From contig NC_092675.1 of the NCBI RefSeq assembly GCF_964355755.1, positions 25,764,912 to 25,828,911 of the forward strand: DNA of 64,000 nucleotides, written 5' to 3'. Source of the stretch: Antedon mediterranea. Lineage: Eukaryota > Animalia > Echinodermata. Of this stretch, positions 5,126 to 59,900 are shown piece by piece. Every line of letters starts with the position of its first letter. Position 1 is the stretch's first letter. Both the position numbers and the translations under genes were made by a program. The notes beneath the pieces are model-generated. The model searched no databases, was not told the origin of the DNA, and saw only the letters and a list, made by a program, of their open reading frames with translations.

Positions 5126-5738
5126 TACGGTAACTGCTCAAGTGGACCCAATTTAGCACCAGGGTAGCACAGTGATATAAAATAGAAATAAGTCACTACT
5201 TTTAATATCGTTTCGTATGTTAATACACTGTGCTCAAGTGGACACAATTTGGCACCAGTGGAGCACAGTAATATGAACTCCATTGGCTCCAGTGGACCCA
5301 ATTAAGTTTCAATATATGTTCGTATGTAATAATACACTGTGCTCCAGTGGATCCAAGTTGACGTCAGTTGTGGAGCACAGCGAAATATTCACATACAAAA
5401 ACATCGAGAAAAATGCTTCTGAAAAATGTTAAACTTGCTATAATGTTAAATATCGGTTACTCAATCCGTACTGCATAAGAAAATTTTGTTTCAATCCATC
5501 AGTGATTTTAATAACTTGCGTTTGTCTAAGATAAAAACTTATTCACTGTCCCCGTAAAGTGCACATATTCATCATTGAAATATCAAATTAAATATTAAGT
5601 ATGAAATAATAAAAAACTTGTGACTTTATTTCCATGTTATCTGTGTTCCACTGGCGCAAAATTGGGTCCACTTGAGCACAGTGTATAGAACACACAAAAG
5701 GATATTAAAGTTGTGATTGGTCAAATCACTTACGGTAC
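5126..5738. mobile_element. Non-autonomous TIR element (Tc1/pogo-like MITE) with internal sub-repeats, in the divergent intergenic region
   Basis: Ends read TA-CGGTAA and TTACGG-TA. Several direct copies of GTGCTCAAGTGGACCCAATTTGGCACCAGTGGAGCACAG lie at 5130-5380, with an inverted copy at 5641-5690. Confidence 0.5.
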
Positions 5739-5842
5739 GTCTCTATTGAGAACCAAGCATTAGTTTGGCCAAACCCAGACAAGACGGTCATGTGTTTTCT
5801 TTTTATATCAGATGTACGTTGATTACTACAAAATAAACAATA

Positions 5843-8800
5843 ATGGCTTTTACGTTGTTGAAATACACGAGTTTCCTATTTATGTGGTTTATATCAGAAT
5901 CTGCAGACGGTAAATGTTTATTTTACATTCTTTCTAGATCTAACACATTCAGATAAGGCCTATGATTATCGTTATTATTATTAGTAGTAGTTTTAGTGCA
6001 TTATTTTCCATATAACATCTATTAAATCATTCATAATTAGTTATATTATTTGGACTAACTAATTTTAATTATTGTGAAACCTCATAAACTCAGAACAAAA
6101 ACATTAACATTAATTTTCTGTTCTGAAATTATGAGTTGTCACAATAATTAAAATATGTAATATGTAGGTAATTCTTTTTACGCATTCTTTTTAGGTAATT
6201 CTTCTTTTGTGGGAATTTTGTTCTATGAGATTTTATCGTGAAATAATAGTTTCACTTTATATTAGGATATATCGTATTTTGTATCTTCTTCCCAACTTTT
6301 TTATTATTTTTTTCTGGGAGGTGTAAAGTTTCGAACTTATATGGGTTTCCTTCCACACATACTGTACTATGTCTTTTATTTTGTTATTATCGTACGTGTT
6401 TATATAATTATAATTTTTTATTTATGTATTTTTAATACGTGTGTGGAGAACATTTAATGAATATTTATTGAATAAACGAATAAAAGTATAAAGTATATTT
6501 CGTCAGAAAAATACAATCATAACAAAAACAATTCAAAGAGCATAGGCCTAAAAAAAGATTTCAAAATCTCACAAAAATTTAATAAGATACAATATAATTC
6601 AAAATAGAGTAACATTCTTAATAAACAATTCCATTTATTAAAGTCTTAAGGCCCATTTATACTACGACGATAACCGATAAGACAAATACATTTTTCATAC
6701 ATAAAACAAAAGATATCTAAAAAGTTTTCATTCTAGAACTATAAAATAACCATCTGCTTCCTTTTATGAAAATATTTTCACACATGATTAGTAAGAGCAA
6801 TAATATCGTGACAATACAAAGATTTTATTGTTTTTATTGGATTAAAAGAAATTATATTTCTTTCAAAGACAGCATAAATGATTAACCTTTCTAATTTCTT
6901 TTGTTTTACGTAAGGAAATGCAGGCTTATTATTTATCGTCGATCGTTATCGTCCTATGTGTAAATGGGTGTATGAATGGATTTCTAAATCTATTTCATAA
7001 TAATATCCCTTGATTTATATTATAGCGCCTAATTTTGTGAAACCTCTAATCGCTGTACAAAAACTAATAGGCCTACGATAAAAGGGATTCCACCATGGCA
7101 TGGCCTTCGTCGCTAACCAGGGATCGGTCTAATTGAACCACCAGTTTTGTTTTTGGACTTCTTTGCTTTATCGGATTGATTTATAATGTTTGTTTGATAT
7201 TTAAACACAATTTTAATTTCTCTAATGTGTGGGTCACTGGGTAGTAAGTTTCTCAAGTTGACGGCAGACATTAAACCCAATTACTGTTTAAGCCATTTTC
7301 ACCATCCTATTCATTTTTAATTTGTCAAGTATATCTCCACATGTGAAAACAGATACCACTAATGTACATATAATAATAAATAATGTATATTTATAAATGT
7401 AAATAATATATTGTTTGAAGGTTTGCATGACGAAATCTAATGTTGATATAAAGTTGAGGACGATCAAAGCATATTGATCGAAATGTCAAGAAACTCTACA
7501 GTTCTTTTCAGTACTAATATACGTGGTGTACCGAAAAGTTTATATCTATATTAAATAACTGATGAGAAAAACATAATGCATAAGATGTCAATGATCTACT
7601 CACACAAAATTACATTACTGCAGTTTATAAAAGCAATTTATTTATTTACGTTGTCATTTTCTTATTGCATCTTTTTCTTTGCAATTCTATTAATAAAAAA
7701 AAATCAGTAGTTCATAATTTTTTGGAAGTTCTTCTATGAATGTTAGTCATTCAACCAGATGTCGAGCCAATCGCAAGTAGCGTAGGGCATGACACTTTTA
7801 AACAAAATCTTAGACGGTGACATTGAATTCGGATAAAAAATTAGTTTTTTTGTTGCTATTGTTATTGTTATTCACGTATTTATTCAATATAAACACATCT
7901 GTTGTAGTGTGAAATTTTAGTAGAATAAAGAAGAAATTACGCTTTGGTAGATGATTTTCAGATATTCAATGAGTCTAAAGTACTGTTTTTCATGCTTTGT
8001 ATATAACACCCTCTTATTTGTGTTTTTATAGCTTGTACTGGAATTGACTTTTCTTCTTATAAAAATGAATACATCCACGACGGCAACCTTGGGTCATTTA
8101 GAAACTGTATTGTTGTTGAACACAATGTGATAATAGAAACGGAATCATTTCGGGGGTAATAATAGCTTTTTAATTCATCATCATTATCATTATTATCATC
8201 ATTATCACTATTATTATTATTATTTGTTTTATTGGTTATCTTCTGGGTTATTGGTCATGTCTCAACTGCTTCCCTTAGAGACATAGCGTGTGCTGCTCCC
8301 TGGATGGCCGTCATTTGAGCGCTCCCTACGATGTCCGGTACATTACATTTTTCATGCCTTGTTTTTAAATTTTTGAAAATGTTTCCAAGAGCGTCAATTA
8401 CGTTTGGAATCAGTGCCACTATAACTTTTTCTTGGATTCACTAATTGATTTCAAAGCGAGTTCTTTGTATTTTCTACACAGCTATGACAACAAAATGTGT
8501 GGGCCTACATTTCTTATCAGTGTAAACTGTCATGTCCCAAGTAATTCGAATGTTTATTCTCTGTGACTTCTAATGGCTGTTGGTCATACCATTTGTCAGT
8601 ACATTCGATTCCGTATTTACTGAAAATCTCCCAGTGTACCCACAATGCTACCTTGTCATGACGCTTTCTATACTCTCGCTTTATTATTATTATTACCGCT
8701 ATCGCTACCGCTACTATTTATGAAAACGTATAATTAAACATGTTTTTTTCTAGAGATCCGTTTAATGGTGTCATACCAACGTCCTATCAAATATTGTTTG

Positions 8801-9702
8801 CTTTAGAAAATATTCAAGTAATAAAGGGTTACCTAAAGATTACTGGTGATAGCCCTGAAATGAAACATGACATGAAATATTTGCGAAATCTACGAGAAGT
8901 ACATGGAAATGAGTTGGATGGGTATATAGTTATTTTCATTTTTACTTGACTTATCTTTATCATACTAAACATGAAGTTCCATCTCATAATATCATAAGTT
9001 GTTTCTATGCTTAAAAGACATGTATTCGATAGTGATATATTGACTTATTTAAAGATGTTAATATATACATAATTATTAATTTTATTTCAAGTTGTAAATT
9101 ACTTTCAATACAACCAACTTAGGCCTATATTTGCTGTATATTTTTTGTATAGTGGAGCAAGCATCATAATCTCCAGAACGGCATTGAAAACGTTGTCATT
9201 AACTTCATTGAAACTAGTGGAAAAGGGCCACATATTTATTCAAGACAACGACAATCTATGTCTAACAAACGAATCACAGTGGCATGTTATTGTTTTAGAT
9301 AATAATATACAAGATATTATCATCTCTCGTAATCAATCGCCAAGCACTTGTGGTAAGTAACTTGTGGACTACCTCAATTTTGATTGTTGAACACTATAAT
9401 AATTAGTTTTTTTGCTGAAACATGCTCAACTATATACATATATTGTTATATCCAAAATCAATCCTGATCTGCCCATTTTAAATTACCTAATATGCATAAA
9501 ATCAAAATGGCTGCCAATTATCTCTTAAACCATAAATATATTTTTAAAATTATTAATCATGCGCAATAGGCCTACCAAATTTGTTTTTGGTTTTGTAGAT
9601 GCCGAAGGCTATGTATGCCATGAAGATTGCTTGGGTGGTTGCTGGGATTTGGGATCAGATAATTGCCACCGGAAATTTTCAAAGTATAAATGCCCAAAGT
9701 AA
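5843..9702 (+). CDS. Secreted single receptor L-domain protein (EGFR/ErbB domain III plus start of furin-like domain IV), 220 aa
   Basis: Exons 5843-5909, 8032-8155, 8754-8921, 9153-9352, 9599-9702 (663 nt, all GT-AG, intron phases 1,2,2,1). Protein: MAFTLLKYTSFLFMWFISESADA (signal peptide) CTGIDFSSYKNEYIHDGNLGSFRNCIVVEHNVIIETESFRGDPF...LENIQVIKGYLKI...YLRNLREVHG...LKTLSLTSLKLVEKGHIFIQDNDNLC...W...IISRNQSPSTC DAEGYVCHEDCLGGCWDLGSDNCHRKFSKYKCPK*. It is colinear with EGFR CNGIG..FKNC..FRGDSF..FENLEIIRG..SLGLRSLKEISDG..NKNLC..VCHALCSPEGCWG. Confidence 0.88.
6649..6970. mobile_element. PIF/Harbinger-like MITE
   Basis: Imperfect TIRs: AGGCCCATTTATACTACGACGATAAC on the left and GTTATCGTCCTATGTGTAAATGGG on the right. 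Confidence 0.5.
7454..7490 (+). ncRNA. Degenerate minimal hammerhead ribozyme core in a Penelope-like repeat fragment
   Basis: TTGAGGA-C-GATCAA-agcata-TTGATC-GAAA-TG-TC: a CUGAnGA box with C3 changed to U, a perfect 6-bp stem II, GAAA, and UC. Confidence 0.45.
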
Positions 9703-10494
9703 CATTTCCCAAAAAAGGAGCATGGAATTCCAAGTAAAATGGAAGTTCTTCGTGATGGCGAAGACTATGAGCCGATTTTCAAATTTGACATTGAACAATA
9801 GATTTTATTTTAATATCCCAATTATACATGTTATGGAACTAGAATTTGAATATAATGTGTATATTTTCAATGTTAGTCTAGTAGACGAGGAGGAAATAAA
9901 GATGGGCATCCGGCTGGGAGATTTGTCGGACCATTTTTTTAAACATTTTTATTATTTATGAATTGAAACATTTTATTTATACTGGGTGACATCTCCAGAG
10001 GGCATAGTTATGATCAGTGGCTGTAGTGAAAGATGTAGTAGGTTCTTTAAAGAGCACACGAGTCGAGAAGACTCTTCTAACACCACCAGAATCGAGTGAG
10101 CCCTTGCCGATAGTATGGCTAAGTAATTACGGTTCCATTTGCAATCAATAAACACTCAAACAGTTAATATATTATATTATATATTATACATAAATGTCAT
10201 CATATTATACGCTATTGGTATACTCAGCGTTAGTCACCTTACTTTATAACATAAAACATTTATAATAAGTATTGGCAATTAAAGTAGTTGCTATTTAATC
10301 CTGATTGTTGCTTATAAGACCTTTTTTATTATTATTGTTGTTGCCATTGGTTTCTAAATCCAGATTTAATTGTAGATTTTAAAAAAATATTGCTAATTTG
10401 GCTATTAATATTATTAAATGTATACTTGGTTCATTATATAGTCCGTTCCAATAATGCAGAAATATGGAGATAATAGAATCGATCGATAAATGGA

Positions 10495-10750
10495 CCAAAC
10501 AAAACATTTATTATGTACTATAGTAGAATCCTAAAAGAGACACTTGGATAGGGGTTCCCGTTTATTATGCGGGAAGTACCGGTATGGTGTTCCATAAATA
10601 GAGGTGTCAGATGAAAGGGATTCTGCTGTAATTTTTCTTTTCAATTTCAATTTGTTTTTCTTTCTTTTTCGTATTTTTATGGTGTTAGATTATTGTGTAA
10701 TATCACGAACTTGTGTAAAAACGATCAATGTTGATTGAATGAGTTGTACA
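10495..10750 (+). mobile_element. Diverged copy of the 3' UTR of the LINE at 23.2-26.7 kb
   Basis: CGGGAAGTACCGGTATGGTGT...AAATAGAGGTGTCAGATGAA.GGGATTCTGCTGTAATTTT...TCACGAACTTGTGTAAAAAC...GAGTTGTAC is the reverse complement of about 23248-23510. Confidence 0.8.
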
Positions 10751-11132
10751 ATTTGTTCTAACAAATGGAAAAATCAAAATACGTCACGACGTATCTTGGA
10801 GTATTTTATATGATTAACGTATACTATAAATATACTATTTACTATATTTTATCTATTATTACGTACTTTGTACAATTTAGATATAGTTTATTTCGTCATT
10901 AATAAAAATAAAACAAAAATTCCCTGTTCGTCCGCATCTTGGGATCCGGGGATAAAAATTGGTTTTAACTGACAGTATTTACACGACGACCCCCTATTAC
11001 CGCGGACTATTGCACCATACCATTTTCTAATCTGGATCGCTTCTCTTTTTTTTAATATTTTCAATCTGAAAGACGGGGTGAAACTAATCTAAGACATAAG
11101 AACAACAATTTCGACTGATCAAAAACAGTTTC

Positions 11133-11138
11133 TTTATT
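11133..11138 (-). terminator. Candidate polyadenylation signal (AATAAA) of the guanylyl cyclase gene
   Basis: TTTATT on the + strand, at the end of about 4.3 kb that is U-rich on the minus strand downstream of the stop at 15494. Assignment is inferred. Confidence 0.35.
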
Positions 11139-13582
11139 CATGGTCACAGATATTTTGCATAAAATCACTTGTGCGCAAATACAGAATGTAGCTATTATAG
11201 GCTGTACATTAGAGGAGAAACTAAATCATCAATAAAGACTTGGCACTGAGTGGTGTCGTAATAATCGGGCAATAATTTACACATGAGGCCCAAAACACTA
11301 TATCACACCCTTCGTCGGATCGTTTTTATATTACCTTTTTTGTATAATGTAAATGGCATCGAATTGGCCTATGTCATTAAATACAATTAAATAAGCTCTA
11401 TAACATTGGTCATACGGATCGGCTAACGGGACATTTATATGTGATAAAAAAATTAAAAAAATAAAACCGAGAAAAAAATAAATAAACGAAAATCCAGTAG
11501 AGCAAGCCAACTAATAATATACATTTAGTATTCTCGTGACATATACGTACTATTAATACTGTATCGCGTAACAATCATGTATCGAATCGAATGTATGATG
11601 ACTTTATAATACGCCCTAAGAAAATTATTCTTCCTCCAAAAAAAACTTGTAATTAAACCCTTATTGGTAATCTGATCTTTCAGTAACCAAGTTTAATTCT
11701 GAATAGGACAACATACTTTACATGATAATTTAAAAAGCTCTGGTCGAATGCATTACTAATTTTACTGCTAGGCCTACAACTGGTGAAGCGAATTTAGATC
11801 AACCCTTTCTCCTACTTTTGTGTTTAATGAACATGTATCTTTGGTTGACACATCTGAATTATCAATATAGGATAGATATCGTATTCAACAAAATAACTAA
11901 TGCTTATAATATATGATTCCTGTAGGCTTACCAAATTAATATACACACAACATTTTTATAATTATTGTAACAGGTAGCTGGTCTGAATGACACCTTCACC
12001 TCTTGATAGTAATCGACATTACTAGATCACTGCTTAAAATCACTTTAAAAATTAATGTTAAACATGATTATTAGTAATAATTGTATATTACAAACTATAA
12101 AGACACGAGAAGAACTCAAAACATTATATATACATAATAATGATGAAATACACTTTCGTGCACCATCTACATTCAATATAAATACTATTTATTTAAAAAT
12201 ACGGCATGACGTCATTGTACATCACATGATTTTCAATACACACTGCATCAACAAATAATAACATTTTGACTTTTTAAATGTTTGTAAAATACAGTACATA
12301 GGTATAGAAAATCAACGAAGACATAGGATCAGTCCTCACGTTATCTGACACTATAGCGAGAGTACCCTTCCCACCCCGTACACACTTTGTATAACAAACA
12401 AATCTAACAACACACTGGGGGTAAAGTAGGACATTTAGACACAATTTCCAAGTAGCAGATCATTTTCAAATATAGTTTAAAACCTTCCCATTTACTATAT
12501 TCCTGCCATGTCGATACCTCACACGCCATGGAAAAGCATAGGATGGAGGCATTGGATTTTAAAACATTTTATAGTGAAGGCACCATCAGAATAAAAAGAA
12601 TAATAAGACAACAAATTCGTTCAAGAGATTCATTTTAAGAAAGCAAATATAAAAAACAAACAAATAATATACACAAATAAAAAGAGCATTGGTCATTTTG
12701 TTTCATGTTACGTAATGATGACGTGTTTTGATCTTCCACTAATATAACAGGACTGAATACTGCACATTATTTTATACGATACTAAACTGCAGCAGCTCAG
12801 TCATTACATTTGGTATCAATTTTAAATCCACAATGTATTGCTCTTTTTTAGGAAGACAGCAATACTTAGGCAAGAACAGAGCATTGTGTTGAGGCCGATT
12901 GCATAGATGAAGCGTGCGACAAAAACGCGTTTCAAAAGAATAATAGGTTCACCGATATGAAAAAGCATTTTATAAAGTTTAACGCATTTCAAATGGGCAA
13001 TCGGGTACACACACATTGCGAAATACAATTTACATTCATGTAACGCAACACAACAAAGCAAAACTGACACTAACCTACAATTATCTTACACACGAATCGC
13101 TGGTCGAATTAAACAATTGAACAGATTTTCATTTTTGTGGTGGGTGGGAGGGGTGGTGTTTGGCCTAACCAGGCCTATACACTTATTATTATTATTATAC
13201 ATGGCTACAGTTGAATACAAATACATTATTTTTAAAAATAACATTTTTCTGGAAGTTATAATGGGATGGAAACGGCTGTGCCATTATTATCTATTAATAT
13301 AAATAAATACTATATATTTTATTTATATAAATCACGTACGTAACGTGGAATAAAACTTTCTTTTACTATGTACACTGGCAATTACATTATATTATATTAC
13401 AGTAAACGTTCCGGCTAAATTAACCAAGTAATTTCAATGTTTTCGTTTTACACGTAAAAAGAACTATCAATATTTAACACTTTCACTCCTGTGTTAATAG
13501 TAGACAAGAAACGCTCAATCGATCTCTTATATAAATATATCTATTATTGTAAACAAGTAAATACGTCACTTGTAGTTCCTAA

Positions 13583-13851
13583 AGCGTGGTTCCCACTAGA
13601 ACGCAACGCAACGTAACGCATAAAAGCGAGGGTTTACTCATTTAAGCTTGGTTCCCACTAGCGAGGCAACGTAACGCAACCTACGCAATGTAAGAAAATT
13701 CCCTTCCAATAGTTGTGTTTGCCCCCGCCTCCGTGAAATCAAACCTGCGATGTTTGCAGCACTGTTGTATCGTCGGTTCTAATTTGTGATTACGCAATAC
13801 AGCACTTTGCCTCAATACGTCGCTGCGCTGCGTTCTAGTGACAACCACGCT
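13583..13851. mobile_element. Harbinger-like MITE (AGC(T/G)TGGTTCCCACTAG family): one partial and one full copy
   Basis: Left TIRs at 13583 and 13645, right TIR CTAGTGACAACCACGCT ending at 13851, internal ACGCA repeats. The same family occurs at 40221, 57985, 61052 and 61286. Confidence 0.7.
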
Positions 13852-14990
13852 TAAAATGGACCTGAAATGGATTTTCGATTTTTTTCATTTTAGAATGATG
13901 TTTTGGGGGCTATTAGGTGTTGCTAGAATGTATATTGTTACAAAATATAAATTGGCCCTTTTGGGGAAAGCCCCATTTGAAAATCAAAAAAATTCGCGGG
14001 TGACGTCACTTTGCGAATATATTCCTATCCCTCCAATGGAAAATTTGCAGTTTTTTGGCTATAACTCTTGAAATCTATGGAGTATTTTCTAAAAAATGCT
14101 TGTGCATTTGCAGAAACGTATTTAGAATTTTTTTAGATAAAATTATTACCGTATAAACGGTTATTCATCGAGTAAATGACGATTTAAAATCTTAAAATCA
14201 ACGGTTTTTTTCTGGCAATACCGAAGTTGGCCTGGCAACGTTGTCCGGGATACAGCTCCGTGCGCAATGATGCGTATCCATATTTTCCGTTCGTGTATTT
14301 TGTATATCGTTCGTAATTTATACTGCTAAAATGTGTTAGTTTCTTTAGTTTTTAGTTTAGCAGAATTAAATTAGTAATATGAGATGATAATTTATTTGTC
14401 ACGAATCAGGCAGTTCGAAAACGAATTTTATTCATATTTTTACTTTGGCTTGACAATGAGCGAAGCAAGTTGTTGATATCGCTTTGGTCCTTGGATGCAC
14501 ATGAAACGGAGCCTCGCCGCATGATGTGGGTGGTGGATCGACTCCGCGCGCTGGATTGGGGGGCCTAGGCCTAGTAAAGGTTTGGGAGGTAGGCCTTCTA
14601 AATTCGGGTTTTAGAACAAACGAAGTACATTTTAGGGACCTATATTTCAACAACATTAGATATTGAATAAATTAGTATTAGTGTCAACGCTTCGCGTATC
14701 TTTCCAGGCCGTCGATCATTCACTGACTATCGGGCGGCATACACGCTCTCGATATCATCGTGTGTATATGTGACGTCGTGAATATAGAGGCTTCCGACGG
14801 CCGTTAAAATAGAATATTGCAATGGCGTGAGTAATTTTCGCTAATTTACCATGGTATCTTAAAATTTCGTTTTTACTCAAAATACTATACATTTTGTTTT
14901 TATTTGTATGGGTTTGTGTTAATTTGATACATTTAAATAACATGTGTGAATTTCTTGAAAATCGAAATTCCATTTCAGGTCCATGGTTGA
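13852..14990. mobile_element. ~1.1-kb non-autonomous DNA transposon (TTAA-associated, Kolobok-like)
   Basis: TIRs ATGGACCTGAAATGGATTTTCGATTTT (about 13856) and AAAATCGAAATTCCATTTCAGGTCCAT (ending about 14984). Starts at TTAA; CpG-richer core; no transposase ORF. Confidence 0.65.
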
Positions 14991-15493
14991 AATATCATTC
15001 ACTCGAAAGAGTTCGGTTTTTAGTTACAGTAACGGTATGTCGTTATGTGCACTGTCACTTTCTATGTGTAAGCTATATTTGCTGGAAATTCCGTCTACAA
15101 ACTAAAGTTTTGTTGGTAATAATATATAACATTTTTACATTACGATACTATTTATACATTTGACTGACGTTTAGGTCTTCCTTTATCAATAATGTTGTAT
15201 GAATCTGGAATGTGTGGCGTAATGTGCGAGGATTGATCTAGGAAATTGGGGATGTTTTTTATCTACCTTTTCTTCTGTCTTTTGTATTTTTACACTAAAC
15301 GATGGCAATTTGTTACAAATATCTTACACAGTAAAGTTGAAGTTTTTATCTCAATACATTTTAATTTTTATTTAAAAAATCTTTCTACCAATAAATATGT
15401 AATAGTAATCCAATAATTTATCTGGCTGGTTCGGTTTTCCTGATTTTCAAGAACGGACTTTGGTGAAGACGTTGTTTAAACACATTTTGTAAG

Positions 15494-18400
15494 TTAAAAT
15501 GAACTCTCGTTTATAAGTAATAACTTCTCTGACATTTCTAAACCGTCTTTTTCTTCTATGGAACCTATAAGGAACAAAAACATAATAAATTATTAATGAT
15601 GATGGCAGTATTACAGTTTATTGTTCTGACGTTGACCGGCCAATTGTACAATTCATATTGATTTTCAAATAGTCAAACTTAGGCCTTATAGTATAACCAA
15701 TGGTCAACATAATGTATGTAGTTGACGTAGGCATACGCAGGCTGAAATCAGAGGAAAGTGAGATACAACTCTTTTCGGTATAACAAGTGTTTTGTTTATC
15801 TAGTTTGTAATAAGTTAACAAAAATTATATATTTAGGTATGCAAGTATTTACGATTTATAATTAATACATTTTGTTTATAGTTTTTGCGAGATATTTAAC
15901 TTATAATGATAATATGTATGTATAATAATATTATAAGACAAAATAACGCGCACATGTCATTGCATTAGTTAATTGGGAAAATAGTATTGCGCATGCCCGA
16001 TACACAGGGCCTACTATCACAGTCATATCAACGGGAGGACTAAATCAAAAGCTCTGTCTACAATATCAAACTTTATGTAATGTGATCATATATGGACACG
16101 ATGACGTCATATCACTACCATATTTGGGCACATCATACTTTTTTTGTCAAACTAGTTGGATATTGTAGACATAGCTTAATAGTGCTTTGATCACCTGTAC
16201 CTGGAAGAGAAAATCTTCTGAAACTTCCGTCTTCACTTCGTTCTTCTAGAGATAGTTTCTTTGTTCTATTGTCCTCTTCATCCATTATGATATTAGTAGA
16301 TGTTAGTCCAGATGAAGATCCACCTGTTGTTGCGATTGAATGATGTGAATGACGTAACGAATGTGATGGAATACGCACACGCCCCATTACCCAATACGTC
16401 CTCATCATTCCCTTTCCCTGAAAAAAAACCCAAAGTTATTACGTAGATTATTAATCCTGCCTAATAAAACTTTGACTATAAATTATATTAACACCTTCTC
16501 TTCCCATGGCTTGTACTTATCCAGCGTCCATTGTAGAACAAGGTGTGTCATGGAATTATATATATTATGTTTTACACTATCGAATTAATTTTTGCGATTT
16601 CTTCTTCTTAAAATAATACTATACCTTTTTGTTGATTGACTTACAGTGTGTTTTTAAATGTATTAATTTGCCTATAGGCCTAGACAATCTTTTCATTTAC
16701 GGTTCACAATTCTGGAATTATGAGCAATAAAACACTTTCAAAGTGACGGTAGATTGCGTCACAAACTGAACCCGACAATGATATTAGAGGTGAACTGTGA
16801 CTATCACGTAAGATGCATACATTAACATGTTTTCTACTAAGTACCCGTGTGACACTTAAACACGGAAGGTATGCCATGTAAACAAAATAAATGGGGCATT
16901 CGTAGAAATACGTCAGTAAAGAGAAATTGCTCTATCCCATAAACTCGAAACATTTTCTAGTAATAAATTAAGATTAATTTCAAATATCAGCATTTACGTT
17001 TTATGTCTTGGTTAACCTTTGATGATACCCATTCATTATTGTATTTGATGCAGGTGTCAATTCCCAAGGTAAACCCGGCAATATACATCGTAAACCTAAC
17101 TCAACTTCGTTTAACTCTTGTCATAAACTTACGCGGGAAAGTGTCTTAAAAACGGAGCCTAGTCATTTTTCATCTTTGAGCAATTATAAGCATAATTGCA
17201 TTTCGACCACTTAAGTGTATACTAGTAACTAACTGGTTAATTTCCAAGACATTTTGAATACTATTATATATCATGATAATATATATTTCAGATAGTATAT
17301 TTTGGACAGTAACCTCATTAGGGGCTCAGAATATGTTACACGTCCTAGTTAAAGTGTTTTCCTGAAACATTTCTTCTGTAGAAACCAAATCGTATTGAGA
17401 ACCTGCATTTCAGAAGAAACCATATCTCCTAAAATAAACAGTTCTTAGACAACCCGTCGTATTCCAAGATTGAGACCGGAAAAAGAGAATCAAATCATAT
17501 ATTTTTATAAGTTAGCCCTGACAAAGATCTTACCGCTTCATCCTCTTTGCCACTATGCAGTGATGTAGGCCTACGTGCATTAAGTTGACCAATCACAAGT
17601 GACGAAATATAAGTATGCAGTTTCCAGAAACTTTGTTTCACTCCATACTTTCTTTCTACACAATGTGGTACTTATACTAATAAGCTCATACGTAAGTGCG
17701 TTGCGTCCAATGGGAAAGAACCAGACATTATTATTGTGAATATAGCCTGGTTGTAATGACTGTTGAATCTGAACTGAATTGTTTATTATTTACCTTCACT
17801 TGCATTTCTCCCCTTTCTTCCACACTGTACCCACCAATCTTATCGAGAACTTTCTTACAGTTATCACTAGCCTGTATTCTTAAAGCTGAAAAATAACATA
17901 TCATCATCATTTTATCAACTTTTCTAAAAACTATTGTAGGACGCCCTCGCAATAAACATGGTTACGTCAATTTGTATTTTCGCTTAAATTTTCTTTAATT
18001 TGATAGCTTATTTCACTGTAATAATTATACGATAACGGTAGTACATGTTCCATAGCAATCACGTTTTAGAATGCATTTCACATACCAGTTTTTCAACGCT
18101 TAGGTTTGCGCCTATAACGTTGAGCTATCATCATGTTTAATTGTCCACTAAAATTAGCTATTACTTTGCATACCTTCTCCTGTGGATTCCATTCTAGATG
18201 CCGTGTTGACCGTGTCTCCGAATAAACAATACCGCGGCATTTTCAGTCCTACAACTCCAGCCACAACAGGACCTAAAATGTAACAAAACAATTATGAATT
18301 GGATTTATTAAATTATTTACTTCTGATTTTTATTCATACAGTATAATTTTATACAGAAGTATATCAAACCCAAACACAAAATTACAATTTTTAAATGTTC

Positions 18401-21400: not shown

Positions 21401-24400
21401 GGTTGTGTACGGAATAGTTAAAACAAATTCTGTAGGCTTATAGTGTGATAAAACATGACATTATAAATAGAGAAAATAAAAAAATATATTATAAATCCAA
21501 AGGCAAATAACTGAAAAAATGACAATGCTGTGGGTATTAGTGGCTGGATCTCAATGGATCCAAAGGCAAATAACTGAAAAAAATGACAATGATGTGGGTA
21601 TCAGTGGCTGGATTTCAATGGAGATACAAAAAAAAAAGCGAAAAGCTAAATCAAAACGATAAAGTAAAACAGCCAGATATCAGTTTTCTGTAATAAATAA
21701 CCAAACAATATATTAATTTGTGTTTAATTTCAACAGTTCAGATCTTCTGCTTTGCCAATTTTCTATTTATATAAGATTGGACGCAATTTTTAAACATTAG
21801 AATTGATCCGAAACATTTGGGAACAAGGTACATGGATGTAACCCATCTGATTGTATCCATTTTCAATGATTCTTTATTCCGATTAAAGTTATTTATTATC
21901 TTTACTATCATCTATTTTCTTCCACATTGTGGTCTGTAAATTAAACAGTAGCTACTATTTCAATGTAATTATTGCTTTATTTGTCTAATAATTTTGCTAT
22001 ATTGCTGACATACTTTACTGTAAATAATTCAGTATAAATACATATTAATAAGCCACGCACTTAGAATAATCGGTATTCATAATGAATATATTTACATGAC
22101 ATTTGCATAGAATGTTTATTTAAGATGAATATATTTGCATAAACTTGACTTAGAATTTTATTTAAGATGATTGATACCGGTAACAAATATTATAGTATAT
22201 TAATCTGTCCATGTGTCATATATACATTTTGTATACAATGTTACATGTATACTACCGTAATACGCCGTCTTATGTTTAGACACGTGTGACACAGTATTAC
22301 AGAAATGGCTGAAATATTTGAGCTGTAACTTCTTTAATCTCCCGAGGTTGTGCACAAATATTTTTACAAATTTATAGTTGTTATTTCAATTTTAATATGT
22401 TGGTTAGGTTATGAAACTACTGTTCTAAGAGGTCAGAATGTGTGCTAGTATAAAAGGCTAAATTGCTACCAATATTGCACAGATTAATCATAATTCAATG
22501 GTAAAAGGCAATATATGTCACTATTCATCTTCCTTGAAGCTACTTTTATGTATTTTATATCGCTCTTCAATTTATTATGACTAGCATTTCAATTTCACGA
22601 GAACATGATGTGCACCTTTACACTCGTTAATTGAAAATTGCCAAAAGCCGTAATCTATATTTAAAACAGCTAGTATATTTAAAACATCTAGATAAATTTC
22701 CGCTAATAACCCCTTGTGGCAAATTGAAGTTATTAATTACAATTGCTACTATAATAAATATACAATATTCGAAACGGTTCGGTTACCAACGTGGTAATAC
22801 TGGTAAGATGATATTCCGATTTTCTATGGGCTGCTTTTGGTCGACTGGCCGAGCAGTTAAGGCCGCAAAAGGATCAACATCGAAAGCTTTCACCGTAAAG
22901 GCTTCTGGAGGTCCTTTGTACACATACATATAGTGTGAACAAATAACCAGAACTGTTCTTAAGAGTAAGGGTTTACCCGGTGTACATGACCCATATGCAC
23001 TGCACTGCGCTGTAGTAACTGTCGTAGGCAGAAGCAAACTACATTTAATGTAAAAAGTTTGTGTAAGAGGAGGCGGTGTCCAAATCACTGGTTTGGAAAG
23101 CAGAACCACATTGAAAAAAAAAACCTATTGCGATATATCTGTACATGAATCTGTCTAATTCTGTAGCATAAGTTTTATCTGATTCCCACCCCTGTCGTGT
23201 TTAACATATATATATATAAACTTTATTTAGACACGAGACTGATGTGCAGTACAACTCGTTCAATCAATATTGATTGTTTTTACACAAGTTCGTGATACTG
23301 TATTACAAAACAAAAAAAATCAACACCATATAAATACAACAGAAACGAAAAAAATTGAAATTGAAAAGAAACAAAATTACAGCAGAATCCCCTTCATCTG
23401 ACACCTCTATTTAGGGTACACCATACCGGTACTTCCCGTGTAAACGGAAACCCTTATCGAAGTGTAGAATTCATGGGGATTCAACTGTAATACATAATAA
23501 GTCTTTTGGATTTCATTTACCTTAAAATAATAGTGATAAAACACACATTTTACTTAGTATTTAGCCATTTTAAAAGTTGGATGTAGATCGTAGATTACCA
23601 TACCATTATGTTTTACAATGCATTTTTCAGATACGTTTTAAACAACTTAACTGAATTTGGAAGGGTATCAACATTGAGACTATTCCATATAATTGCTCCA
23701 CGATAAGACAGACTTCGTTTTTTAAAATCGGTTTTTGGCTTTGGGATGAATAGATGTGTATCACTGTGCCTTAGATTATAATTTATATCATTGAATGTAA
23801 ATACATTATTTAGGTAAGGTGGGGCATTATCTGTCAAAACCTTATATATAACCATACAACATTCATATCTATCTTGATAAAATAAAGGTGACCAATTAAT
23901 TTGCCTTAGTGCCTCACTACTAGGTGTGTCCCATGTTAGACCACACACGATTCGAGCTGTTCTGTTTTGTATAGTTTGAACTCTTTTCATTAGAGTTTGA
24001 CTACTATTTCCCCAAATTATGTTACAATAGCTCAAGTAAGGTATTACAATAGAGTTTGCAATATGTTTTAATATGTTTTGTGGAAAATAATAGCTACATC
24101 GTCTAAGCATACCCAATCCATTTAGAGCTTTACCTCGAATGTATTCAATCTGATTTTTCCATGATAAATGTTCGTCTATTATGATACCGAGGTGTTTGCA
24201 ATATCGAACGCGTGGTACAACATCGTTATCTATATTAACTGATCTATTTTTTTCTTTGGTGGTTGCCAATCGGTTTGTCGATCCGATCAACATGAACTCG
24301 GATTTAGAGACATTTAGACTCAATTTATTATTTTTTAGCCAATCGTCGATTTGTATAAGTTCTTCATTTATACTTTGGTATATTTCATTTTCATTTTTTG

Positions 24401-47900: not shown

Positions 47901-50900
47901 ATAGAAAGTAATGGTTTATTTGATTCCACTCATTAAAACACACGTGATCAATATTCGGTGTGTGATTTTGTTCTACCGGGACTTTACTCGTCTTACAGCA
48001 CTGTCCACTTCCGTGCAGTAATTCGTGATTAGTTTTATCATGAGTATCAATAATTGAGTAGAATTATATCTCTTAGAAGTTATTCAATTACATTATTGCG
48101 CTTTAATGGTAAGAGTAGACAAATAGATGCAAGTTATGGCAATTTGGAGATAGTTCTGTTGTTGCGGCATTTCCGATGGTAGGATGGATCGTATGCAGAT
48201 TCCTGAATGTATGAATAAAAATGAACTAAGTATAGGTTGCTTATAATTAAGATTATAGCTTGAAGAAAATTATGATACTACATGAATAATAAATAACTGG
48301 ACATTAATATGTTACCTAACTCTAGACATGAAGAACCGTCTGATTTAAAACATAAAGCATCAACATTTTTTTTTATTAACTTTAAAACAAATTTAATTCC
48401 GTTTCAAATGATATGAAGTTTAGTCCAGATGTTTTGCAACAATATAGAACAAAATAACTATTAATTATTAATATTGAATAAACTGGCTGAAACAAATTAA
48501 ATTTAACAATTAATACACAATATGTTTCTTGTCAACGCAAACAACAATCCAGTGAAATATATTATACTAAAATGATCCTGGAAAGGTAAGATTAATCAGT
48601 TATCCCTATAATTATCATGGGCAAGTGGACCAGAGACCAAGACTATGCTGTATACAGTAGTGTCGCTGCTACGGAAAAAGACTAACTCCACACCCCACCC
48701 CCCCCCCCCCCCACCCCAAAAAAAAAGATAAGAAAAAAAAAAGAGGGCGGAGATGGAGGAGATAGGAAGCGAGTAGAAAGATACATAAATGCTTACCAGA
48801 TATATAAGTGCTAATAGCACAACGATTGTGAAAATCGATGCAATGATAGCCGCAATCTCTCCTGTACTCAGAGGACAGCTACCACAATCAGCAGGGCATA
48901 CGCTACAATCTTCGTCTCGTTCGGTATCACAAAATGCATCACCACAAACTACAAAATTATGTAAAACACGTTTATTCGTAATCGTTGCAGTTAATTTTTG
49001 TTAATTTTTGTTAATATACGGTAATATAAATAATATTTACGCTTTACTATATTTTGAGGAATGATCTATAATACTTTGCAAGTATCTTCATATTTGCCAG
49101 TTCTTATACTATGACGTTATATATATATATATATACTATGACGTTATCCAAATTCCTTCACTTGCACTGATGAAGGGCTAGCGTTGCCCGAAAGCTCTGC
49201 TAACTTTTCTGGCTGTTTTACCTTATCGTTTTGATTTAGTTTTTCGCTTATTTTGTATCTCCATTGAGATCCAGCCACTGATACCCACAGCATTGTCATT
49301 TTTTTCAGTTTGGATTCATATTTAGTACACATATTATATTCACAGTTTTTAAAATTCGTATCCTGTAAATAATTATCTGCATTTTATTAACGCGGCTCAT
49401 TACTAGAATAAACCCTAGTTTCTTTTGTATCTGATATTTAAAAAAACTAAATTAATAATCATTTAATCTGTATTTTCCATGTCGTTAATTTTTCTTTTAA
49501 TTAGAGAAAATTGATCTCCCATCCATCACATAAATTAAAAAAACATTGGTTTGGCTGAAGTGTTATTTGGGATCACCAAATAGAAAGCAAGATAATTTGT
49601 TTATTTATATTAATGAGTTATAATGCTCGTGTAATAATATTGCATTGTACGATAACCAGTTTGTCCTTGTTTTATTTAAAACATCATTTCTACAGTAAAC
49701 CATTCAGTGGCGGATTACCATCTAGCCGAAAACTATCATTAGGTATATTTAACGTAATAAAGCAATTATTTGTACGGAGTAGGCAGGAGGATGTTACAGT
49801 ATTATCTTTCTTTTCTTAGATTAGTCTAGATTCTCGAAAATAACATAGTTTAATTTCGTTCATATAGAGCTATAGGGCATATGTGAAAATATTGGTAAAG
49901 TGGTCGTCTCCCCGTACCGGTTCTAAACACCCAGCTCGCAAATATTTAGCGCCCCCTTGTGTCATTATACTGTACAATCTAACCATTTCTTTGTAATAAA
50001 GTTATAAACATGATTCATCATAGAAAATACGATGATAAGATGGCACTGTAATTTATCATATACAACGTAAGTAAAAAGTGGTATAATGTGAAAAAAAAAA
50101 ATATTCTAAAGACAGTATGATAATGATTATAACATGCGTGTTATGGTCATTTGAGATCAAAACAAAAGCAAAGAATATGATGGAACTACGAGCACCGTGA
50201 CTTATCGCCATGTTTGTGGTCATTAGTATAAATATACTTTTTAACTGTCAATACGAAACGCATGCATATTATAAATTATTTGAAATGAGCCCTGATCTTC
50301 TGATGACAACTAACTAAAATACATCGCGCGTATTACTCCGTTAACACTGATTTGTATACAGGTGTTACAAAAGAATTTCATGGTTCGTGCGTTTTCTATT
50401 ATGACACCCCACGAGACGATTGATACAGAATATTATCCCCACGTCCATTGCGAGACATTTCACGTACTAATTGTATTAACATGCAGAAAACATCACTCCT
50501 CGCACACACAGCATACCAGAAGTTGGTTGCTCTTAATCGTCATTAACTTTAAAAATAGTTCCTAACTAAACATTCACAAACGAATATCGATCAATTACTC
50601 AATGTTATTTTAAAGCCAGTTGAAGAAATTCAATTTAGCTTGATATAGAAGTCATTAAATTATAAAGTACAGTAATCTAATAAAGATTTGCTTAAAGACC
50701 TTTCCCACTTATATTGACATCGATCTTTAATATAAAGTCAAATGTATGCAAGTTAAAGAATGATGAAGCGGCGTATACGGGTTAATAATACTTAGTAGAG
50801 TTTGTCTACCGAATTACCCCGATTCTAAAATCATCTTATGCAATGCATGGTGAATGATATTCCCAAAATGGAGGTTTAGCATTGAAACTTTGTTTATTTC

Positions 50901-56900: not shown

Positions 56901-59900
56901 CTTTTAACACTCTAGAGAACTGTGATTAGCATTACAAGATTGAAGTATCGCCCAAATATAGTAATATTATCGATTTTCACTAAATTCAATACGAGTTATG
57001 TTATGTAGTTGATTGAAATTTAGATGGCTGACAGAAATTCATAGGATTGCCCGATTTTCGTTAACGCCATGGACATTTTGTATCGACATTAAGCGATGCC
57101 AAAAATATGTGTAAATTGTAACGGAAAGTTGAATTCAAATGCTCATACCAATCTATAGTCCCTAATACATCATTGTTTTCGAAGTTACATATCTTTCAAA
57201 ATAATCCCAAAATAGATCAATAGAGATCAAGCGTGTCATAAATAATTCTCAGTTACAAAGATATCCCCACCTCACATACACACCCCTTGTTTAGTGGTGT
57301 ACCATCTACTAAGCCAATTATACTGAATTCCTCAACATATGTGGTATTACACTCTCAGTATACGGATGATTCTTATGTTTAGTAACTTATATAGATTCTT
57401 TCAATTATTCTTCCTTCCGTTTTCGGTTATACATACAATGCGTTGCGCACGATTACACGCGAGCGTGTTGTTGTTGACTTAACATAATTTTGGTGTGTAC
57501 ACCTGTTTGGTGTTCAAGCTGTTTCCGACCAACTGGCAAAAACAGGTGTTAAACTTTGGTCGCTTAGTTACGGATTCAGTTTGTTCCGCCCGTGCCAAAT
57601 ATCGTGTAGCAATTAATGATATTTAAAGAATGTGCTTTACGTTATTGGATTGCATTGTGTAAATCATATACACAATGAATTGTGTTGACGAATCTAATTA
57701 TAGATGTCATACGGTCATTCTGCATTATGATGATTCTTTGCTTTAGAATCTGTTTATTGCCTAAGCTACACCTTATACTCATATAGGCAAAGATTTAAGG
57801 CCAATTTACACAGACGAGCGCGTAGCATGCCCCATGTAGGATCTGTATATCCTTAATGGGAAAAAAGGCTTTGTGTAAATGGTATAAATAAGGAATAACA
57901 TAGATCCTATATTATTTGTATGCCTATTTACTGTGTAAACTGGCCTTCAAAGAGAATTGTTTCATTTTAGTCTTACTCTTCTAAAGCTTGGTTCCCACAT
58001 GGAGGCAACACAACGACGTATACGCAATGCAAGTGTGTTGTCCAGTAACAACCGACAGTTCGAATGACACATTGCATCGTGATTGGTCAAATACTTACGT
58101 CGTCCTTGCGTTGCGTCCTAGTGGAAAAGAAGCTTTACTAAAGGAAAGTCTAAACACACATTAGAGCCATAAATAGAGAGAGTTACGACTTTGAATGGAT
58201 TAGAAGCCATGTTTGTGTCCAACTACTATTCTTAAGTAGCGTATGGAGTTGAGTCTTTTGTTTTGAAAATGTATAACGTTCAAAAGGCTTTAATTATCGA
58301 ATTTAATATCAAAACAATCAATTTGTTTAAAGGTTTTTGTTAAAATAATTAGAAAATTATAAAGTTACTGCGAACATGATTTTAAACAACAAAAATAGCA
58401 ATTTCGGAACGGCTCTGGCTGTGCGCTCCATGCACGCGCCTACGCGTGTGCGTTTAGTCTGTACAGCGATTCTCTATAATAGTAATGCATTGTTTTTACA
58501 TTTTGTTGTTTAAAATCATGTTCGCAGTAACTTTATGATTTTTGATGGCGATTGATGAAAATTCCATAATTATTGCTACTGTGTGTATACAGATTTTTGA
58601 AACAAAAACTCTTTAAACAAATTGATTTTTTTTATATTATATTCGATATTTAAAGCCTTGTGAATGTTATACATTTTTTAAGCAAATGACTCGACCCTAT
58701 ACGCTATAATAAGCATAGTTGGACACAAAGATGGCCGGTGTGCACACCACGTGACTTTCTAAAATCTGTGAACGCAATGTCGAAACTCTCTCTATATATG
58801 GCTCTGACACACATCAAGGAAATGCGCCCTCTTCGGATGAATAATTTGAAAACTTTCATGATTGGTTCCCTTATTTTTATTTCCTTGGTCATTAAACAAA
58901 AGGTCATTACAAAAAAATGAATGACTCAGATCATGACCGTCATGATACCTTTTTATGTTATGTTATAAAATTGTATATGTTTGAAATATATTCGTACATG
59001 CACGAAGCTATGAAATCAATATGAAGAACTCCACTGGGGACAATTAAACGTTTGTATTGACATCTGCTACACAAACATAGGTTATTGGCTTAAGAGTTAA
59101 AAAACACGTTCGTAACTTACCGACTGCCTCTTCCACTGTCAAGACGCTATGCAAGGCTGCCTGAATGTTCCCTATGCGAATGTGAGCAATTATGGAAGTC
59201 AGGCCTGTTGTAACTAAAGCAACCTCCGTGCTCCACATCGCTGTTGCTAGGTTACCGTAAACGGTCGGAGTATGTGTAAATATGGTTCCATTTGGAGGAA
59301 TCCATGGTCCGCAGATACCATTACCAATCTAAAAATAAATCCGTAATAAGCAAATGAAAACTTACTTCCATAACATATTGCAATTTATAATAGGCCTAAG
59401 AATAAGAAGTAATTTCTGCCAATAAAAATAACACACACAAACAGAAATATATATACATATTTTTTCTCATTATCACAGATGTTTTCATCTTTATCGTTTA
59501 AAATTAATTAATTAAATTTCACCGGGCGGTTTACAATTTATTCTGTGCCTGTGTGATGTTTATATACATGAAGGGCTAGTGTTGTCTGAAAGCTCTGCTA
59601 ACGTTTCCGGCTGTTTTACTTTATCGTTTTGATTTAGCTTTTCGCTTTTTTTTTTGTACCTCCAATGAGATCCATCCACTAATTTTTGTTTTAGTAATTT
59701 GCCTTTGGATTTATATATGCATATATATAAACTATAAAGTACCTCCTCTCATGTTCACATTGAATAATGATACATAGGCCTATTTCTTACCACACTTTGA
59801 GGACATGAGTGGACATTAATATGATGTAAGCAGCAGTTATTCTCGTCGTAACTTGTATCCCTATCGTCACATGTAGTATTATAGCAAAAATCCTTTGCTT

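Follow-up and report, generated by a model that had tools for sequence, protein, structure and literature searches.

A 64-kb window of the Antedon mediterranea genome (the whole stretch of DNA that was analysed, which contains no N) holds a small gene with the signature of part of an EGFR ectodomain. Does this gene encode a functional secreted protein, and if so with which partner, or is it what remains of a longer receptor gene? A preliminary description had read it as a partial EGFR duplicate that gained its own signal-peptide exon and acts as a soluble trap for EGF-type ligands.

Gene structure and domain identity

The gene comprises five exons that join into 220 codons through four introns, all with GT-AG borders, in phases 1, 2, 2 and 1. 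Its features are listed below; P0001 is its closest relative.

5843..5909, + strand: exon 1, with the start codon and the predicted signal peptide, apparently inherited from the parent gene (match to the P0001 N-terminus)
5910..8031, + strand: intron 1, rich in repeats (high repeat depth), the site of the missing domain I-II exons
8032..8155, + strand: exon 2, start of domain III with the Cys24-Cys48 pair (tblastn with P0001, E 1.8e-8)
8754..8921, + strand: exon 3, domain III, carrying D65 and F67, the site-2 equivalents (Pfam PF01030, E 1.5e-4)
9153..9352, + strand: exon 4, remaining part of domain III with the Cys156-Cys186 pair (Pfam PF01030, E 3.1e-6)
9599..9702, + strand: coding part of exon 5, first disulfide module of domain IV with Cys193, Cys197, Cys201, Cys209 and Trp202 (tblastn with P0001 residues 464-489, E 7e-6)
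End of exon 5: 11-residue tail with the unpaired Cys218, followed by the stop codon
9895..9900, + strand: candidate polyadenylation signal, the first AATAAA 3' of the stop (from sequence)

The start codon, the reading frame and all eight splice sites are intact. The frame ends with a TAA stop codon at 9700-9702, and the predicted protein contains nine cysteines. Using P0001 as query, tblastn recovered all five exons separately and in order (exon 1 at E 0.018, exons 2-5 at E 2e-14 to 7e-6). The exon structure is that of the preliminary description, including the first cysteine module of domain IV and the stop. The borders of exon 4 coincide with the start or end points of single-exon gene calls in other genomes (P0013, P0014, P0023, P0025), and the intron positions of human EGFR presumably coincide with those of the mini-gene, as had been proposed. 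The N-terminus of the mini-protein is homologous to that of P0001 and mildly hydrophobic, and no later hydrophobic span follows; the signal peptide and its cleavage site are predicted from this homology and from hydropathy. Upstream of the start codon, in the interval 5790-5842, an acceptor-like pyrimidine tract ends at 5811, with an out-of-frame ATG directly after it at 5812, which points to either an untranslated exon further upstream or an upstream frame that overlaps the gene.

The domain assignment rests on profile, structure database and tree comparisons. A Pfam scan of five sequences placed Recep_L_domain on two of them, exons 3 and 4. The expected GF_recep_IV match was not obtained when exon 5 was scanned alone. 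In the PDB, sequence matches to the mini-protein exons were ErbB ectodomains, with IGF1R far behind. The best match to exon 3 was Drosophila EGFR 358-404, the sole match to exon 2 was Drosophila EGFR 316-343, and ErbB chains made up 59 of the 60 matches listed for exon 4; IGF1R was absent among those 60 and reached E 0.096 or worse with exon 3. The L domain is thus of the ErbB domain III type, colinear with it as first described. It matched the domain III of P0001 with 52% identity over 192 columns, versus 30% over 94 columns for the other L domain of P0001, domain I. No closer likeness to InsR/IGF1R than to ErbB appeared in the PDB matches. A four-domain ectodomain was not found either, as the window contains no domain I or II sequence, including the arm of domain II. 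Likewise, a transmembrane segment with an intact tyrosine kinase was not found in the window, where the search returned one borderline, stop-containing stretch at 22.15 kb. Pfam detected no EGFR-family domain in 96 plus-strand and two minus-strand frames, a scan insensitive enough to miss the frames of exons 2 and 5 as well.

Closest relative and phylogeny

A protein search with exon 4 yielded 26 proteins at E values up to 0.001. The best of these, and the closest relative of the mini-protein, was P0001, an EGFR-like model of 732 aa from Antedon mediterranea itself (XP_071941004.1). Identity to its domain III was 52%, compared with 33-34% for the next EGFRs. We built a tree from 28 L-domain rows of 15 of the 26 proteins, dropping matches that spanned 90 residues or fewer; it contained no insulin receptor, no canonical crinoid EGFR and no IRLD sequence. 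The mini-protein was sister to the domain III of P0001 (support 100/99) inside the domain III group (100/100), in agreement with the proposed EGFR affinity. The two share a long stem of 1.42, and their end branches measured 0.36 for the mini-protein and 0.72 for P0001.

P0001 has a 27-column gap at the dimerization arm and no hydrophobic span of membrane length. Dimers of worm, fly and human EGFR are described as needing this arm (PMC4465127). Since P0001 lacks both arm and membrane span, the parent type looks already like a non-signalling ectodomain, with the proviso that the P0001 model may be partial. The gene may be a duplicate or a paralogue that was reduced in place, and its parent type was probably a divergent, arm-less EGFR-like protein rather than a canonical EGFR. 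The two proteins have a homologous signal peptide and a similar domain III in common, and neither model contains a membrane segment or kinase; P0001 differs in keeping domain I, an arm-less domain II and a long domain IV, again with the reservation that this annotation model may be incomplete. Residues 298-489 of P0001, used as a stand-in for the mini-protein, superimpose on EGFR models at TM 0.89-0.92. P0001 is itself a candidate full-length decoy. Database searches returned no close relative of P0001.

Searches for proteins with the architecture of the mini-protein gave none among 61 candidates (a search that also missed P0001), none among 201 proteins of 30-401 aa and none among 596 in a pattern-match search, while a search of 973 proteins gave one match, P0001 itself. 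The protein atlas returned L-domain clusters only, including a 241-aa cluster with a single L domain whose members are perhaps fragments. EGFR models without kinase occur in amphioxus, hemichordates and a damselfly, and partial EGFRs are therefore not rare in annotations. In the damselfly Hetaerina americana, two models (P0012, P0021) fuse parts of an EGFR ectodomain to DM9 repeats without a membrane segment, and little of the dimerization arm is left in P0012.

Origin of the reduced gene

The signal-peptide exon had been thought to be a gain of the mini-gene. In contrast, the whole of exon 1 aligns with the signal peptide of P0001: 11 of 22 residues were identical, and none of 20000 shuffles scored as high. 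Its local score was 65 against P0001 and 9-24 against ten other EGFR N-termini, and nhmmer with back-translated P0001 residues 1-40 returned a match at 5843-5908 (E 1e-5). Because of this homology, exon 1 is, on sequence grounds, inherited from the parent gene and not gained, and the mini-gene form would thus have arisen when the exons of domains I-II were lost from within the gene.

To map what was kept, P0001 was cut into 36 overlapping pieces that were searched against the window with a cut-off of E<0.01. Nine pieces matched, namely the first one and eight of the nine covering residues 301-500, whereas none of the 26 pieces outside the kept parts did. Domains I-II left no trace in the window, either by tblastn or among the 14 pieces starting at residues 21-281 (E<0.01). 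At the other end, homology to P0001 stops just past Cys209. The gene therefore appears to have shrunk by losing domains I-II and its 3' exons. In the sequence of events that we propose, a divergent arm-less crinoid EGFR paralogue of the P0001 type would have lost its domain I-II exons through an in-frame phase-1 deletion, and its 3' exons from just beyond the final cysteine of the first module of domain IV, which would leave four complete disulfide pairs. Going by the established EGFR structure, eight of the nine cysteines pair off as they do in domain III and the first module of domain IV, and Cys218 has no partner. What the gene keeps corresponds closely to the segment used as human domain III, residues 311-510 (bioRxiv 10.1101/2024.02.21.581471), and a human domain III fragment is reported to have been crystallized in isolation (PMC7922143).

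Tests of the 11-residue tail disagreed. As a frameshift remnant it scored well in a post hoc test, where 18 and 37 of 5000 nulls were as good, but a second test (168 and 208 of 600 nulls as good) and a third (926 and 1015 of 2000) failed. As a domain-II-like segment it was matched by 2 of 3000 nulls, in a post hoc comparison that leans on insect and lamprey rows.

Predicted ligand binding

Human EGFR domain III is reported to bind EGF via D355, F357 and Q384 and a hydrophobic patch of L382, F412, A415, V417 and I438, of which D355 and F357 define site 2 (PMC11400634). D65 and F67 of the mini-protein are the equivalents of the Asp and Phe that hold Arg41 and Tyr13 of EGF in the human receptor. 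Site 3, in contrast, consists of K92, T94, A122, I125, S127 and F148, with K, T, A and S in place of L382, Q384, F412 and V417; it is variable in other invertebrate EGFRs too. Sites were mapped through an alignment of P0001 with ErbB3, with a residue equivalence between EGFR and ErbB3 that we assume, and through the register of exon 4 against EGFR, taken to be free of gaps.

Our preferred reading, held tentatively and at somewhat less than even odds, is that a reduced EGFR-like gene encodes a small secreted binder of EGF-type ligands with low affinity, which serves as a buffer or carrier and not as a tight trap. With D65 and F67 keeping site 2, an EGF-like ligand could dock by one of its faces. 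The mini-protein, if expressed, would then bind the ligand weakly, and buffer or spread it without signalling, given that a protein that lacks domain I, the arm, a membrane segment and a kinase could not signal. More speculatively, Cys218 could link two copies and add avidity. The word trap in the preliminary description is too strong, as weak binding is to be expected of a domain III on its own. Speaking for the preferred reading are the intact frame, start codon and splice sites, the conserved columns and shorter end branch, the fold of the P0001 stand-in, the arm-less parent type, and a human fragment of domain III that is reported to bind EGF at about 450 nM (PMC4282322).

Several observations weigh against this secreted binder. 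Site 3 is altered, and EGFRvIII, a form without domain I, is described as having no appreciable EGF binding (bioRxiv 10.1101/2024.02.21.581471). The unpaired cysteine could cause retention in the ER, the out-of-frame ATG lies 31 bases 5' of the start codon, and the searches described above, of limited reach, returned no orthologue with the same architecture. Two of the at least three coding differences between haplotypes change a residue. Furthermore, the selection signal described below may predate the truncations, and the conflicting tests of the tail provide no date for them.

A more far-reaching version, rather doubtful in our view, is that non-signalling EGFR paralogues of crinoids evolved stepwise, losing first the arm, then membrane anchor and kinase, and then domains I, II and most of IV. 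Its endpoint would be a natural stand-alone domain III protein, cut near the boundaries of the engineered human fragment, selected as a secreted modulator of EGF ligands and possibly dimerized by the new cysteine in the tail.

Selection, variation and expression

Conservation was compared over 180 aligned columns. The mini-protein was identical to P0001 in 38 of the 45 columns that are conserved among 13 outgroup domain III rows versus 25 of the 76 variable columns (p 2.6e-8). Where P0001 keeps the consensus, the mini-protein changed at 2 of 33 conserved columns, both conservatively; P0001 changed at 1 of 32 conserved positions. At the level of sequence comparison, the mini-protein branch shows purifying selection, which spans the whole branch and may predate the truncations and belong to a longer ancestor. 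We also simulated neutral drift, scoring frame, start and splice sites with an assumed indel rate. The gene remained intact in 365, 47, 9 and 0 of 1000 runs at 1, 3, 5 and 10% divergence, respectively. A neutral copy stays intact only below about 5% divergence, which leaves two options for the gene, maintenance or a very recent death.

The second haplotype carries at least three coding differences, one silent and two residue-changing (P66L, R128K); one of these changes leads to the residue that EGFRs of hemichordates and amphioxus carry. Over the exons, DNA depth is like that of unique sequence (88% likeness), although depth does not equal copy number. Run X5 proved to be RNA, with three CT..AC joints at introns of the neighbouring cyclase gene and cover of a REXO1 exon and the cyclase 3' region. 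Its contigs, from this one run, do not cover exons 1, 4 and 5, a blank that is not evidence here, and the 15 of 26 joints that were listed included none at the four mini-gene introns, which we counted neither way.

The most serious alternative, which we still consider rather unlikely, is a dying copy or paralogue that was recently truncated by two deletions, or by a deletion and a frameshift, in a fast-evolving EGFR-like gene, and whose remainder has yet to decay. The simulated survival of 37% at 1% neutral divergence fits such a relic, as this divergence is of the same order as the allelic differences seen. An in-frame join could also have arisen by chance if nearby introns are in phase 1, as we partly assume. 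The missing orthologue, the unpaired Cys218 with a tail that may be a frameshift product (18/5000 and 37/5000 nulls) and the incomplete EGFR ectodomain models common in other invertebrates point in the same direction. On the other hand, both losses end at boundaries of folding units, no remnant of the lost ectodomain exons was left among the 26 P0001 pieces (E<0.01), and the frameshift reading failed its two further tests (168/600 and 926/2000). Moreover, if the possible, heavily decayed kinase exon discussed below (22149-22334, same strand) was part of the gene, decay downstream would have been long while the five exons stayed intact.

Less probable is a secreted L-domain protein that is functional and binds something other than an EGF-type ligand, for example an insulin-like peptide, the ectodomain of a receptor, or a molecule of microbial or matrix origin; the partner of the C. 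elegans IRLD proteins is similarly debated. The stem of 1.42 in common with P0001 indicates fast divergence from ordinary EGFRs, site 3 has changed, and the damselfly models join EGFR ectodomain parts to DM9 repeats. IRLD proteins, moreover, are described as tied to both insulin and EGF signalling (bioRxiv 10.1101/2021.06.07.447366). Yet the site-2 residues are kept, and all close matches of the mini-protein are ErbB domain III sequences, with IGF1R at E 0.096 or worse.

Does the gene continue downstream?

A donor at 9699 (GTAACA) had been named as a possible route to membrane and kinase exons. It lies in phase 2, presumably like the EGFR intron after the equivalent exon. However, it lacks the G at -1 that is present in all seven real donors examined, i.e. 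the four mini-gene donors and all three RNA-confirmed cyclase donors; of the six candidates listed within the last exon or shortly after it, five lack this G, 9699 among them. The interval 9760-11400 contains a single pyrimidine-rich acceptor, which stays open for two codons. P0001 domain IV found no match downstream of exon 5, either by tblastn or with the P0001 pieces. DNA contigs of three runs (X1, X2, X3), from one sample that is possibly the source, cross exon 5 and the downstream junction where homology ends.

A profile of seven EGFR kinases found the kinase-like exons of the cyclase gene itself and one plus-strand stretch at 22149-22334, inside a cyclase intron. This stretch scored 10.4 bits, above the best of 110 simulated windows (9.5), and looks like the C-lobe of a tyrosine kinase of the EGFR type; its frame contains a stop, and a site near 22166 resembles an acceptor. 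Its only PDB matches were to a tyrosine kinase (E 0.05). The stretch had no Pfam match and no companion exons among the best 25 profile matches. In a DNA-level search for further kinase remnants, which was insensitive, even the controls reached only E 0.7-3. The stretch is possibly a decayed kinase exon, as a borderline lead, and it is not a working continuation of the mini-gene. Transmembrane or kinase exons on the strand of the gene were thus not convincingly seen, as first reported.

An incomplete model, in which exon 5 splices on to membrane and kinase exons antisense within the cyclase gene or the assembly dropped exons, is improbable: the phase of the 9699 donor, the kinase-like stretch and the fact that no single contig bridges intron 1 speak for it, but the stretch has a stop and no companions, no domain IV match follows, the one pyrimidine-rich acceptor is open for just two codons, contigs cross the end of homology in a window without N, and the cyclase transcript covers the region down to about 11.3 kb.

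Comparison with known systems

Human soluble EGFRs (p110 and shed sEGFR) likewise combine the ligand site with the absence of membrane span and kinase, and have been proposed to sequester ligand; in EGFRvIII, an in-frame deletion removes exons 2-7 and connects exon 1 with a later exon (both PMC4849047). As described there, the ectodomain of the 110-kDa soluble forms extends to residue 603 or 625, and EGFRvIII remains membrane-bound. All of these come from the receptor gene itself, as isoforms or through rearrangement in tumours, whereas here both losses are fixed in a separate gene. Drosophila SDR and insect DR2 are reported to be separate genes that arose from an L-domain receptor by kinase loss, and SDR is secreted and binds ligand (PMC7253209). 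According to the same source they derive from the insulin receptor, comprise near-whole ectodomains and are conserved across wide clades; the mini-gene, in contrast, is EGFR-derived, has one L domain and is known from one genome. The IRLD proteins of C. elegans (irld, hpa-1, hpa-2) are also described as kinase-less proteins with extracellular L domains; many carry signal sequences, and two members modify EGF signalling (bioRxiv 10.1101/2021.06.07.447366). This family of 68 members is said there to be confined to the genus, with only weak receptor homology. The strong sister link to P0001 argues, at the level of the tree, for an origin of the mini-protein separate from IRLD. By prediction, then, the mini-protein resembles SDR, the soluble EGFR isoforms and IRLD in its working and is a member of none of them.

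For the insulin receptor, separate genes that encode secreted decoys are known, while the soluble EGFR forms in the cited literature are isoforms of the receptor gene. The literature covered, with most subscription papers outside its scope, gave no description of the mini-gene or its architecture in crinoids. A survey of metazoan EGFRs is described as having taken only sequences with a kinase domain (PMC4914847), so that kinase-less EGFR-derived genes would be missed. If real, the mini-protein would be a minimal natural unit for binding EGF ligands, and possibly a regulator of EGFR signalling in a group of animals that regenerate strongly; if a relic, the gene is an ordinary truncated paralogue.

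Neighbouring genes

The flanking genes are as first described. On the left lies a REXO1-type gene with an EloA-BP1 (REXO1) domain, which reads away from the mini-gene, and on the right a receptor guanylate cyclase with kinase-like exons on the minus strand, which reads towards it. Between the REXO1 start and the mini-gene start codon, a high-copy element at 5132-5686 has 46-nt inverted arms that are 91% complementary, and little unique sequence lies directly upstream of the mini-gene ATG. On the minus strand, an RNA-supported splice out of the last coding exon of the cyclase (15562-16199) leads to an alternative C-terminus, and RNA covers 11300-16133, to about 4.8 kb past the stop. Two further minus-strand frames, at 48599-49000 and 59047-60634, resemble extracellular and membrane exons of the cyclase, with a cysteine-rich stretch before the hydrophobic span.
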